DNA from: an uncultured Acidobacteriota bacterium
GTDB lineage: Bacteria; Acidobacteriota; UBA6911; RPQK01; JAPXNP01
Assembly: GCA_963777605.1 (NCBI GenBank)
Contig: CAVZRV010000007.1
Location: forward strand, 736,001 to 800,000
DNA: 64,000 nucleotides
Reading direction: 5' to 3'
A model generated the notes under the pieces. That model had not been told where the DNA came from, ran no database searches, and saw only the letters and a program-made list of their open reading frames with translations. Position numbers and translations under genes: made by a program. The first letter of the stretch is position 1; every line of letters starts with the position of its first letter. Positions 19,237-27,226 of this stretch are shown here, one piece after another.

Positions 19237-19245
19237 TGCTAAGGT
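19237..19245 (+). promoter_or_regulatory. Extended -10 promoter (TGcTAAGGT), 6 nt before the msrP ATG; probable leaderless start
   Basis: Sequence gTGcTAAGGTttcttaATG with no Shine-Dalgarno. Confidence 0.45.
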
Positions 19246-19251
19246 TTCTTA

Positions 19252-20268
19252 ATGGCATTCCTGCGCATCCCGAGACCTTGGGAGAAGATACGTGAGTCGG
19301 AGGTTACCCCGGAATCGCTCTACCTGAATCGGCGCGATATCCTTCGTCGGTTCGGCATCGCCGGCCTTGGAGCGACAGCGGCGGCAGCCAGCCTCGGAAA
19401 GGCACTGGCCCAGGAGACCCGCCTCGGCCCTTACGGTCATGTTTCAAGATTCTGGTCCGAGAAGTGGTCCGACCTGTTCCCGGCGACGAGGGATCAGCGT
19501 TTCAAGGTCGAGCGCGGCATTACCGACGAGCGTATCGTTGCGGGCTACAACAACTTCTACGAGTTCTCGCTCAAGAAACAACAGGTCAAGGAACGGGTTG
19601 ACCAGTTCGAAGTCCATCCCTGGCAGGTGGAAATCGCCGGGGAGGTTGAGAAGCAGGGGACCTTCGATCTGGACGACCTCATCCGGATGGGAAATCCGGA
19701 AGAGCGGGTCTACCACCTCCGCTGCGTCGAGGCCTGGTCTGCCAACGTTCCCTGGACCGGCTTTCCACTCTCTCAGTTGATCGAGAAACTCAAGCCCACG
19801 GCAGACGCGCACTTCGTGCGGTTTTTCACACTGCTTCGTCCTTCGCAAATGCCGACCCAGCGCAACGGCGGCTATGGGTACCCCTGGCCTTACTACGAAG
19901 CACTCCGCATGGACGAGGCCATGAACGAGCTCGCCCTGCTGACATTTGGCGTCTACGGGCATCCGCTGAACAAGCAGAACGGGGCTCCGGTCCGCCTGAT
20001 TCTGCCCTGGAAGTTCGGGTTCAAGAGCATCAAGTCAATCGTCAAGATTGAGTTCGTGAAGAAACAACCAGGGACTTTCTGGACCGACATTTCCAGAGAA
20101 TACGGGTTCTATGGTAACGTCAATCCCGGGTTCGACCATCCAAGATGGAGCCAGGCATCCGAGCTGTTCCTCAACACGAGGGAACGGATACCCACAAGGC
20201 TCTACAACGGTTACGGGGAGTTTGTAGGCGGGCTTTATGATGAAACGGAACGAAAGTACTTCTACTAG
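19252..20268 (+). CDS. msrP: Periplasmic molybdoenzyme methionine-sulfoxide reductase catalytic subunit
   Basis: ESEVTPESLYLNRRD Tat signal, YNNFYEF, Mo-ligand LRCVEAWS, WPYYEALRMDEAMNEL, QNGAPVRLILPWKFGFKSIKSIV, HPRWSQASE. Confidence 0.93.
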   Translation: MAFLRIPRPWEKIRESEVTPESLYLNRRDILRRFGIAGLGATAAAASLGKALAQETRLGPYGHVSRFWSEKWSDLFPATRDQRFKVERGITDERIVAGYNNFYEFSLKKQQVKERVDQFEVHPWQVEIAGEVEKQGTFDLDDLIRMGNPEERVYHLRCVEAWSANVPWTGFPLSQLIEKLKPTADAHFVRFFTLLRPSQMPTQRNGGYGYPWPYYEALRMDEAMNELALLTFGVYGHPLNKQNGAPVRLILPWKFGFKSIKSIVKIEFVKKQPGTFWTDISREYGFYGNVNPGFDHPRWSQASELFLNTRERIPTRLYNGYGEFVGGLYDETERKYFY

Positions 20269-20836
20269 GTCAAGGTTCCTTCCCGGGACGAGGTTGCTCG
20301 GCACCGTTCTGTCCTGGACGGGACTGGTCTTCTTCCTGCTGTGGGCTTGCCCCGGCTGTTCCACCGGATACTCCCCGGAAGGCGAACCAATCGACATGAA
20401 AGCCCTGCGGGAGTTCAAACCCTTCGAGTTGCCCGACCTCTCCGGCCAGACCCGCCAGCTTTCCGATTACCTCGACAAAGTGACCCTGGTTTCTTTCTTC
20501 TTTCCCACTTGAGGGACCTGTAATGCGGAGTTGCCGCAATTGCAGAAGCTCTACGATCAGTACTCCAGCCAGGGAATGAAAATGGTCGCCATCAACGTGA
20601 TTCCCGAGCAGGACGACATGGTGGCACCCTGGCAGGAGAAAAACGGGTTCACCTTCCCGATTCTGGTGGGAAGCGACTCAGACTCCATCATGAACGACTA
20701 TCGCATGACGGCAGCACCGCTGAACTTTCTGCTCGATTCCGAGGGTAATATTCTCAACAGGTTTGAAGGCTACGCGCCGGGCGGAGAGAAAGAGATCGAG
20801 AAAGACATCCGTCAGGCGCTGAAACTCGACTCCTGA
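20237..20836 (+). CDS. Selenocysteine-containing TlpA/redoxin-family protein (UxxC), probably exported or a lipoprotein
   Basis: ORFs 20237..20512 and 20531..20836 are in the same frame. Readthrough gives FELPDLSGQTRQLSDYLDKVTLVSFFFPT-U-GTCNAELPQLQKLYDQY...AINV...FTFPIL...APLNFLLDSEGNI. The TGA at 20510-20512 occupies the first Cys position of CxxC. Start uncertain. Confidence 0.85.
20518..20545 (+). promoter_or_regulatory. Bacterial SECIS-like hairpin
   Basis: CTGTAAT-GCGG-[AGTTG]-CCGC-A-ATTGCAG; the loop begins 17 nt after the TGA and has G in its second position. Confidence 0.7.
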
Positions 20837-21474
20837 TCCGGCTGGTTCAACCGGTCGAGGATACCGAGAATTTCAGGGAAGGCGTCGATCTGGAAATCGG
20901 CCCCAACCGGGTCTTCTCCAACAAACCCGTAGCGACAGAAGATGGATCGGCATCCAGCCGTCCTGGCCATTTCAATATCCGGGGAATGGTCACCCACAAC
21001 GAGAATCTCTTCCGGCGCCAGATTATAGCGGGCCTGCAGGAACTTCACCGGGAAGGGGTCGGGTTTCTTAGCCGAAAAAGTATCACCCCCAGCCACAAAA
21101 TCGAACAGGTTCCCCATATCATGCTCCCGAAGCATGGCCCACACCAGAACCTCGGGCTTGTTCGAGACGATGGTCCGGACCGCCTCCACCTTGGGAAGCG
21201 TCTCCATCACTCCCGGGTAGGGTGTTGCCCGATCGCCCGGGTGCGCTTCGTAATACTCCATGATCACGGGCAAAGCGGTCGCGACATCGACCCCTGCATC
21301 TGCAAACGCTTTCTGAGCGAGGACCTGCACCCCAAAACCGACCATCGCGGTGACCGATTCGATGGAGTGAAGACTCAACCCGAACTCCCGGCGGGCATGG
21401 TTCACAGCGTCCGTAATGTCCTGTCGTGTATCGAACAGGGTGCCGTCAAAATCAAACGTGACTACTTTGATCAA
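20812..21474 (-). CDS. gph: HAD-family hydrolase, phosphoglycolate phosphatase-like
   Basis: FDFDGTLFDT, VSNKP, KKPDP, VVGDHSPDIEMA. Confidence 0.75.
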   Translation of the reverse strand: MIKVVTFDFDGTLFDTRQDITDAVNHARREFGLSLHSIESVTAMVGFGVQVLAQKAFADAGVDVATALPVIMEYYEAHPGDRATPYPGVMETLPKVEAVRTIVSNKPEVLVWAMLREHDMGNLFDFVAGGDTFSAKKPDPFPVKFLQARYNLAPEEILVVGDHSPDIEMARTAGCRSIFCRYGFVGEDPVGADFQIDAFPEILGILDRLNQPDQESSFSA

Positions 21475-25000: not shown

Positions 25001-25204
25001 TCCACCTGGTTGGATCACTTCACCAAAAAAGACGGAACCTTTCCATCCAGATGGCAAGATCGGACTTGACCGGTTTCGGCCGACTTTCCTAATTTAGTGT
25101 TTGACCGCGAGTTTCAATCTTCGAAACGAGCGGTTTCGCCTTTTTGAGAGAGGCTATTTAGAGCGGGTTTCGAGCTCGATTCGTTTTTATTGGAGGGTTT
25201 TTCT

Positions 25205-27226
25205 ATGCCCAGAAATGGAGCCAGCGCCAAGGTCTGGAAGGCTGTGGATGCAGCCATTTGCTTTTCGGCCGGCAAGGCATTCGACACTATTCAGTTTTTC
25301 AACAAGTACAAACCCAATCCGAGTTTCACACCAAAGTGGTCTGACAAACCGCTGCTGAAGTCGTGGGAGAAATCCAAGCCGAAATTGGGCTGGCCTCGTG
25401 AGACCGACTCGCTCTGTCCGAAGTGCGTTATTGAAGCCCGGGAACGCATTCTCTCGGGAGACGAAGACTATCGCATCCTCATCGACGAAAAGGTCGGCGA
25501 GGTCAAAGCGACGGTCCTGGAGCGGGACGGAGAAGTCTGGATGGTCAAAGAATGTCCTATCCACGGGAAGTACGAGGACATCATGGCCGTAGACAAGAAC
25601 TTCCTCAAGTGGATCGAGTCGAACTTCCCTGGCCGGGATATCCAGGCTCACAATGACGAGGACCTGCACAACCACGGCTCGAGCACGATTCGCCACGGGC
25701 GTGGCGCGGTCCTGACTGTGGACCTCACCAATCGCTGCAACATGATGTGCGATCCGTGCTTTATGGACGCCAACCAGGTCGGCTTCGTCCACCAGCTGGC
25801 GTGGGAGGAGATCAAGGAGATCCTCGACAACGCTCTCAAGATCAAACCGCGGCGGCAGCTTTCGGTGCAGTTCTCTGGTGGGGAGCCCACCCTCTCTCCT
25901 CACTTCTTCCGCGCTATTCGTTACTCGCGTCGGGTCGGCTACAACAGCGTCCAGGCGGCATCCAATGGCATCGAATTCGCCCGCGACTTCAACTTTGCGC
26001 AAAAGGCCGCGGAAGCGGGACTCCGTTTCGTCTACTTCCAGTTTGACGGAATCGGCAACGACGCCAACAGCCATCGGCACATCGGCAACCTTTTCGACGT
26101 CAAACTGCGTGCCATCGAGAACATCCACAAGGCCGGTACGGAACTCGTGCTGGTCACGACCCTGGTCAACAACGTCAACAATGACCAGGTGGGTCCGATC
26201 ATCCGTTTCGCGATGGACAATCCGAAAAAGATCGCGTTCATTTCGTTTCAGCCCGTTTCATTCACGGGTCGCGACGAGGCCATCACTCCGGAACGCCGGC
26301 TTCTTCAGCGCTACACCCTGTCCCACATGGCGCATGACGTCAAGAAGCAGACCGGTCTGACCGAACCGCTCCGAGACTGGTTCCCGCTCTCGATGATGCA
26401 GAGCTTCTCCGATTTCGCCGACCTGTCTCACGGCCCCGACGCCGAGTGGGGCCAGGTCAGCTGCGGATGTCACCCCAACTGTGGTGTAGGCACCGCCCTG
26501 ATGGTGGACAAAGAAACCAAGGACGCCAAGCCGGTTCCGGAGTTTCTCAACATTCCCGGTCTGGTTGGCGATATTCAGAAGATCACCGATGCCGGCCGTG
26601 GGAAGGTCATCAGCAACCTGATGATGGGGCTGGCCCTCCTGAAACACTACAAGCCTTTCAAGGCGCCCAAGCGGCTCACCTTGGGCGATGTCCTGAAGAA
26701 GTTCGACAAGAGCTACGGCCTCTCCGGAATCGATTACGGGAAGAATTTTGGTGACGAGGCGTTCGAACGCCGGAAGGATCCCTGGAACTTCCTCTTCATC
26801 GCCGGGATGTGGTTCCAGGATCTCTTCAACTACGACTTCCGCCGTACCGAGATGTGCGTCATCCCTTACGGGACCCAGGAAGGGGAGATTTCCTTCTGTG
26901 CTTACAACACCGGACACGGCTGGCGAAACATCATCGAACACATGCACATGAATGCGACCGTCGCCGAGTGGTACAAGGAGCATGGCCGGCACTCGATCTA
27001 TGCCGGCGGCAAGAACCTTGACCTGTCCACTTACAATCACAGCCTCGATCTGAACCAGGAGGACGTCACCCACGTCCGGGATCGCCAGACCGAGATCCCC
27101 ATGACCGCACGAGAAGAGAAATTGGCCCGTCGCCGGGCTGCCCGCGAAGCGGCCATGGTGAAGGAGTACTACGAGGAAACGGTTCTGAAAAAGAAGAAGA
27201 AGACCGACCTCGTGCAGCTCGGCTAG
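25205..27226 (+). CDS. Radical SAM enzyme, tetraether lipid synthase (Tes/GDGT-MAS)-like
   Basis: TDSLCPKC...KECPIHG rubredoxin-like motif, DLTNRCNMMCDPCF, QFSGGEPT, YFQFDG, FQPVSFTGR, CHPNCG, GMWFQDLFNYDFRRTEMCVIPY...ISFCAYN. Confidence 0.8.
   Translation: MPRNGASAKVWKAVDAAICFSAGKAFDTIQFFNKYKPNPSFTPKWSDKPLLKSWEKSKPKLGWPRETDSLCPKCVIEARERILSGDEDYRILIDEKVGEVKATVLERDGEVWMVKECPIHGKYEDIMAVDKNFLKWIESNFPGRDIQAHNDEDLHNHGSSTIRHGRGAVLTVDLTNRCNMMCDPCFMDANQVGFVHQLAWEEIKEILDNALKIKPRRQLSVQFSGGEPTLSPHFFRAIRYSRRVGYNSVQAASNGIEFARDFNFAQKAAEAGLRFVYFQFDGIGNDANSHRHIGNLFDVKLRAIENIHKAGTELVLVTTLVNNVNNDQVGPIIRFAMDNPKKIAFISFQPVSFTGRDEAITPERRLLQRYTLSHMAHDVKKQTGLTEPLRDWFPLSMMQSFSDFADLSHGPDAEWGQVSCGCHPNCGVGTALMVDKETKDAKPVPEFLNIPGLVGDIQKITDAGRGKVISNLMMGLALLKHYKPFKAPKRLTLGDVLKKFDKSYGLSGIDYGKNFGDEAFERRKDPWNFLFIAGMWFQDLFNYDFRRTEMCVIPYGTQEGEISFCAYNTGHGWRNIIEHMHMNATVAEWYKEHGRHSIYAGGKNLDLSTYNHSLDLNQEDVTHVRDRQTEIPMTAREEKLARRRAAREAAMVKEYYEETVLKKKKKTDLVQLG

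Follow-up and report, generated by a model that had tools for sequence, protein, structure and literature searches.

The msrP gene of this uncultured acidobacterium is followed immediately, on the same strand, by the gene of a selenocysteine (Sec) redoxin, and we hold with moderate confidence that the two form an envelope-repair unit whose proteins act in parallel and not in series, the redoxin not being the electron donor of MsrP. The window referred to below is the whole stretch of 64,000 nt that was analysed. The features of the unit and its boundary, by position in the window, are as follows:

19237–19245, plus strand: TGnTAnnnT, resembling an extended −10 promoter element and separated by 6 nt from the ATG of msrP; predicted to drive leaderless transcription of the unit.
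19252–20268, plus strand: msrP, 338 amino acids, open reading frame intact; periplasmic molybdoenzyme of an MsrQ-less group.
20237–20836, plus strand: Sec-containing TlpA/ResA-like redoxin lipoprotein, 199 amino acids with TGA readthrough (Pfam, NCBIfam, alignment and PDB relatives).
20357–20359, plus strand: codon of the predicted lipid-modified Cys41 of the redoxin, a Cys after a hydrophobic stretch (alignment).
20510–20512, plus strand: Sec codon, an in-frame TGA.
20518–20545, plus strand: hairpin resembling a bacterial SECIS, with an AGUUG loop that follows the UGA at 16 nt.
20812–21474, minus strand: gph-like HAD phosphatase gene, convergent, overlapping the redoxin end by 25 nt and bounding the unit.

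The msrP product scores 393.7 bits against NF003767 in an NCBIfam profile search (cut-off 207), and its closest named relatives, 66–67% identical, come from Acidobacteriota MAGs. It carries a twin-arginine motif, N-R-R-D-I-L (residues 26–31, read by eye), in a Tat signal predicted to cover approximately residues 1–53; tatC and moaA are found over cut-off in the genome, standing for the Tat and Moco machinery. Alignment with the structure of E. coli YedY, 1xdq (E 7e-77), places N101, Y103, C158 and E160 on chain positions 45, 47, 102 and 104, respectively; C158 thereby matches the Mo-ligating Cys, and the other three match neighbouring active-site residues. By prediction, the protein leaves the cytoplasm by the Tat route and its Mo centre reduces methionine sulfoxide in proteins. 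The initial annotation of this DNA had called msrP intact and its product Tat-exported, which these results bear out, export being a prediction.

The downstream protein matches Pfam AhpC-TSA (PF00578) and Redoxin (PF08534) over cut-off and has ResA-like relatives among PDB structures. Its active-site motif is FFFPT-U-GT-C (U92-G-T-C95), and its Pro161 is invariant in the family alignment; no NCBIfam model, the WAxxUGC and TUGYCR models included, exceeds its cut-off on this redoxin. Translation would start at 20237, the first ATG, or at 20240; counted from the first ATG, the overlap with msrP is 32 nt (20237–20268), the upper value given previously. The Sec position is a TGA in all nine family orthologues, a TGC in a 61% identical orthologue (metagenome loci L172/L173) and a Cys in the aligned homologues at L059 and L062. 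The genome encodes selA, selB, selD (itself with an in-frame TGA) and tRNA-Sec (selC). The folding energy of the hairpin is not significant by itself (z of about −1); all 11 Sec orthologues nevertheless have the hairpin with the same loop, in genome G004 it shows a two-sided compensatory change, and the Cys orthologue has lost it. Reading the TGA as a Trp codon or as the stop of a pseudogene was rejected, because the genome has a tRNA-Trp(cca) besides its tRNA-Sec(tca), the TGA falls on the position of the catalytic Cys in the alignment, and the TGC orthologue exists. Judged by these comparisons, the redoxin is a true UxxC selenoprotein, as the initial annotation had it; standard gene callers break it into two pieces.

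Two further redoxin-like proteins of the same genome have a TGA at this position. One, likewise split, with the motif FWFPT-U-GG-C, ends a long TPR-like lipoprotein (G000:C30:48672-50009); such long forms occur across the order, some with TGA and others with Cys. The other is a redoxin-like match with a TGA at the first Cys, IWASW-U-AG-C (G000:C35:154748-155110).

The N-terminal lipoprotein-like segment noted earlier also stands: the lipobox Cys, conserved in nine of nine family orthologues, is that of PGC (Cys41) and not that of WAC. Because this Cys is conserved after a hydrophobic stretch, the redoxin is predicted to be a lipoprotein, anchored to the membrane outside the cytoplasm.

The adjacency that the initial annotation had proposed to look for in relatives is kept. 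Among 16 genomes of the family, msrP occurs in nine, a redoxin orthologue in nine and both in seven; in all seven the two genes stand head to tail on the same strand, and a metagenome contig (L171) shows the same arrangement. In genome G004 the pair has a divergent gene on one side and a convergent gene on the other; in the window, the next gene is the gph-like one on the minus strand, so that the unit does end there, as had been stated. The relatives share a block of FNR-like, traB, aroC, msrP, redoxin and gph genes in shuffled order. Most family loci have aroC no more than about three genes away from msrP, and in 7/9 gph adjoins the redoxin gene or is one gene away. Since the pair sits in this block with traB, aroC and gph, part of its conservation is plain inheritance.

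The smallest clade that holds all redoxin-linked MsrPs (FastTree) has 13 loci; upstream of msrP, nine of them have the extended −10 motif at 6–7 nt from the start codon and two more at 10 and 16 nt, while two lack it. The genome background of the motif is 1.8e-4 per base per strand. A sigma-70 −35/−10 scan did not pick up the element at 19237–19245. The motif suggests a leaderless promoter of the unit's own, and msrP and the redoxin gene are likely to be co-transcribed as one unit. Extended −10 elements in the window (19237–19245) and at loci L012–L021 suggest leaderless transcription for the group.

These data could be read as gene order only, the redoxin being a general envelope disulfide reductase expressed from the msrP promoter in an inherited block, with no link to methionine repair. 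The conservation of unrelated housekeeping genes (aroC, gph) alongside the pair, the confinement of the adjacency to one family and a promoter that looks housekeeping and not stress-specific all agree with that reading. We nevertheless regard it as unlikely, given that, while the flanks shuffle, msrP–redoxin is the sole junction never broken in the seven genomes and L171, and that a second, unrelated family of Sec redoxins has been recruited independently behind msrPQ. The latter, with the motif TYG-U-IN-C, is 27% identical to the FFFPT-U-GT-C redoxin and follows msrP plus msrQ at loci L136 and L346 (the latter in G195); the two loci lie close together on the MsrP tree and are therefore counted as one event. 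Their arrangement implies that such redoxins are companions of MsrP even where MsrQ is present. At L346, msrPQ and the Sec redoxin gene are separated by the gene of a small lipopeptide that is rich in Met and Lys and resembles MrpX.

Gennaris 2015 is reportedly the founding paper on MsrPQ. MsrQ is treated as the specific, operon-linked donor of MsrP in the accessible parts of several sources (PMC8076862, PMC13488963, 10.1101/243626, PMC12525009). The absence of msrQ from the 64 kb, as initially noted, extends to the whole assembly (6.7 Mb, 96.7% complete, 5.7% contamination): no match to PF01794 reached the cut-off (best 15.6 bits vs 28), and an unfiltered profile of 46 MsrQ sequences gave nothing better than E 2.8. 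A full DsbD, which the initial annotation had wished to see searched for together with MsrQ, was found. Compared with the MsrPQ (YedYZ) system of E. coli and Rhodobacter sphaeroides, the source genome thus shares an MsrP over the NCBIfam cut-off, with the Tat motif and the Mo-ligand Cys seen against 1xdq, and differs in having no msrQ found anywhere and a Sec redoxin gene behind msrP instead. The assembly also holds identical duplicated segments on different contigs (C4:9390-9818 with C11:282228-282656, and C18 with C29:287504-288616, all G000), which fit contamination or repeats.

A haem-b-like membrane protein with a weak PF01794 similarity is encoded elsewhere in the genome with multihaem cytochromes (7–24 CxxCH) and a membrane Fe-S protein (G000:C10:145486-154845; L001 and beyond), a cluster that may be a transmembrane electron conduit. 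As a general MsrP donor this protein was rejected, being found in 7 of 61 genomes, of which only four belong to the 38 that have msrP; it may be a donor in the source genome.

The initial annotation had suggested that the locus may be a hybrid module in which the redoxin stands in for MsrQ. Several of its elements have held, namely the selenoprotein, the export signals on both proteins, the missing msrQ, the conserved adjacency and DsbD; the role of stand-in is not supported. DsbD would, on that account, reduce the Sec lipoprotein, which would then directly re-reduce the Mo centre of MsrP, other MsrQ-less lineages using other donors. It draws on the lack of msrQ, the 7/7 adjacency and the presence of DsbD in 14/16 family genomes; the closest relatives of this MsrP (59–67% identical), however, go without both MsrQ and the redoxin. 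Six of the 13 clade members (G003, G009, G018, G033, G039 and G048; 82–97% complete) have no redoxin gene behind msrP. None of these six genomes has a PF01794 match or a close redoxin homologue, G009 having a distant long form only; the contigs of G003 and G009 end about 400 bases after msrP, far enough to show that no redoxin gene follows directly. Conversely, the redoxin occurs without an msrP match in G001 (99% complete) and G006 (89%), at L172/L173, where the gene block is kept and msrP is missing from it, and at L169/L170, with no msrP within 4 kb. These gene absences rest on incomplete assemblies. MsrPs lacking MsrQ and redoxin alike, redoxins without msrP and Sec redoxins behind complete msrPQ all speak against the substitution of one for the other.

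MsrP without MsrQ is common well beyond this family, in other Acidobacteriota and in further phyla. In a sample of the order, msrP is over cut-off in 38 of 61 genomes, 27 of which have no PF01794 match at all, and only two of the 38 have msrQ beside msrP. The proteins that match PF01794 in G002, G005 and G010 are encoded away from msrP and, at 440–460 amino acids, do not have the length of a canonical MsrQ. Across GTDB, 38 of 80 msrP loci lack a neighbouring msrQ; 36 genomes of these 38 loci were searched, of which 26 gave no match to NF003831 and five a match over cut-off, so that some of these msrPQ pairs are split rather than missing. A redoxin gene lies near an MsrQ-less msrP in 0/38, 0/17 and 1/31 loci of three sets that overlap slightly and in which contig ends truncate some of the loci; the sole match is on the opposite strand, 2.2 kb from msrP. 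An all-against-all comparison of the open reading frames of the 38 loci yielded lineage-limited neighbours only, and a common replacement partner was rejected.

On a FastTree phylogeny of 181 distinct MsrPs (six of 187 having been dropped as short or duplicate), the state of the neighbouring msrQ changes seven times, compared with at least 49 times in 200 shuffles, a test that shows clustering only, as kin share labels. The MsrQ-less proteins cluster across several phyla, with the source MsrP among them, and a number of alignment columns, such as those in the segment after YEF, set them apart from MsrPs linked to MsrQ, a difference that would suit a direct selenol donor. Fusions tell little: among 69 long MsrP proteins, 18 have an MsrQ match and none has a redoxin domain, the latter being weak evidence against direct donation. 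Six long MsrPs (P0045, P0053, P0054, P0059, P0060 and P0064), two of them named as green algal, have cytochrome b561 or DOMON domains as fusion partners and appear to be other alternatives to MsrQ. A literature search, in which coverage of subscription papers was thin, found no account of an msrP–Sec redoxin pair or of the MsrQ-less group.

Potentials of TlpA-type proteins lie in the range of about −250 mV. For the Mo-pterin of MsrP, PMC12525009 gives a value of about −250 mV and argues against quinones as the donor; with both values in one range, thermodynamics would permit direct donation by the redoxin. The chemistry described points the other way. According to PMC9370002 and PMC10673323, thiols bind to MsrP and inhibit the isolated Mo(V) form, which disfavours direct selenol donation. 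A dithiol donor would fit a two-electron mechanism at the pterin, but this mechanism, PMC9370002 states, has been shown to be incorrect. Benzyl viologen serves as electron source in the in vitro MsrP assays described in the accessible text of 10.1101/243626. On balance, we rate a redoxin that directly re-reduces MsrP as decidedly improbable. If it did so, a thiol/selenol relay would drive a molybdoenzyme of the sulfite oxidase family, as one of several lineage-specific solutions in the MsrQ-less group; with the two-gene unit, one candidate donor can be tested cheaply in vitro. The 27 of 38 genomes without any ferric-reductase-family match, together with the clustering on the tree, give concrete form to the question of the reductant of MsrQ-less MsrP.

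The same thiol-inhibited state (PMC10673323, in the part available) lends itself to another account, whereby the redoxin protects or reactivates MsrP, for example by stripping the inhibiting thiol from the enzyme or by reducing the Cys that ligates Mo, and is not a catalytic donor. This would explain both the dispensability of the redoxin and the recurrence of Sec redoxins with or without MsrQ. We think it very improbable: it is pure conjecture, and some genomes that have no msrP retain the redoxin.

The parallel action of the two proteins fits these data, as does the weaker alternative mentioned initially, that the redoxin works beside MsrP on envelope clients. For it speak the stability of the pair in seven of seven genomes, the survival of each gene alone, the frequency of MsrQ-less msrP without a redoxin, the Sec redoxin behind msrPQ, the presence of DsbD and MsrAB, the inhibition by thiols and the want of any redoxin–MsrP fusion (0/69). 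MsrP would repair protein methionine sulfoxide, receiving electrons from an unlinked low-potential haem or Fe-S carrier. The redoxin, probably kept reduced by DsbD, would act by selenol/thiol exchange, its electrons likely going to oxidised cysteines of the envelope and to repair enzymes that depend on thiols, exported MsrAB among them. Against this reading stand a poor correlation of MsrAB with the redoxin, the lack of linkage of the redoxin gene to dsbD or msrAB and the 12 redoxin-like matches in the source genome.

The source genome encodes a fused MsrAB whose N terminus resembles a signal peptide, and exported MsrAB fusions occur in 9/16 family genomes. They are present in both redoxin-only genomes (G001, G006) and in six of the nine redoxin genomes, but were not found in G004, G005 and G011 (84–93% complete, all with the pair), and they also occur in G003, G009 and G013, which lack a redoxin orthologue. 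No redoxin was found in 27 msrA/msrB loci. Because the genome has so many redoxin-like proteins, others could serve MsrAB, which is a plausible but not exclusive client of the redoxin.

Relays from DsbD/CcdA through a TlpA-like redoxin to exported MsrAB are described for Neisseria PilB, S. pneumoniae Etrx1/2 and H. influenzae MsrAB (PMC13488963, Table 1, in the part at hand), and a ScsB-TlpA-PprX relay for Caulobacter (PMC3322552, in its accessible part). The likeness lies in a lipoprotein reductant of the thioredoxin fold and, in the source genome, in DsbD and exported MsrAB; here, Sec replaces the attacking Cys and the gene is linked to msrP instead of dsbD/ccdA or msrAB. Catalogued UxxC selenoproteins, listed as “Prx-like thiol:disulfide oxidoreductase” (PF00578), “Thiol-disulfide isomerase-like” (cd02966) and “Redoxin family protein” (PF08534), share folds and the UxxC motif with our redoxin, and the available portion of that source (PMC13188914, Table 1) notes no msrP link; the FFFPT-U-GT-C lipoprotein subfamily falls below all NCBIfam cut-offs. 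The hypochlorite system MrpX-YedY1Z1 of Azospira suillum, as described in the accessible part of PMC4436054, resembles the source unit in joining an accessory oxidant-defence gene to an msrP operon, but it has YedZ and is under SigF control, whereas the source unit lacks YedZ. Neither the surroundings of the source msrP nor 11 loci of the family contain a gene for a Met-rich peptide. Should the redoxin be no more than a companion, the unit would be a lineage-specific variant of known envelope repair.

Elsewhere in the window (25190–27226), a 678-amino-acid radical SAM protein with an HMPTM zinc ribbon scores 310.6 bits against the tetraether lipid synthase Tes (cut-off 450); it is a candidate enzyme for membrane-spanning lipids in an acidobacterium.
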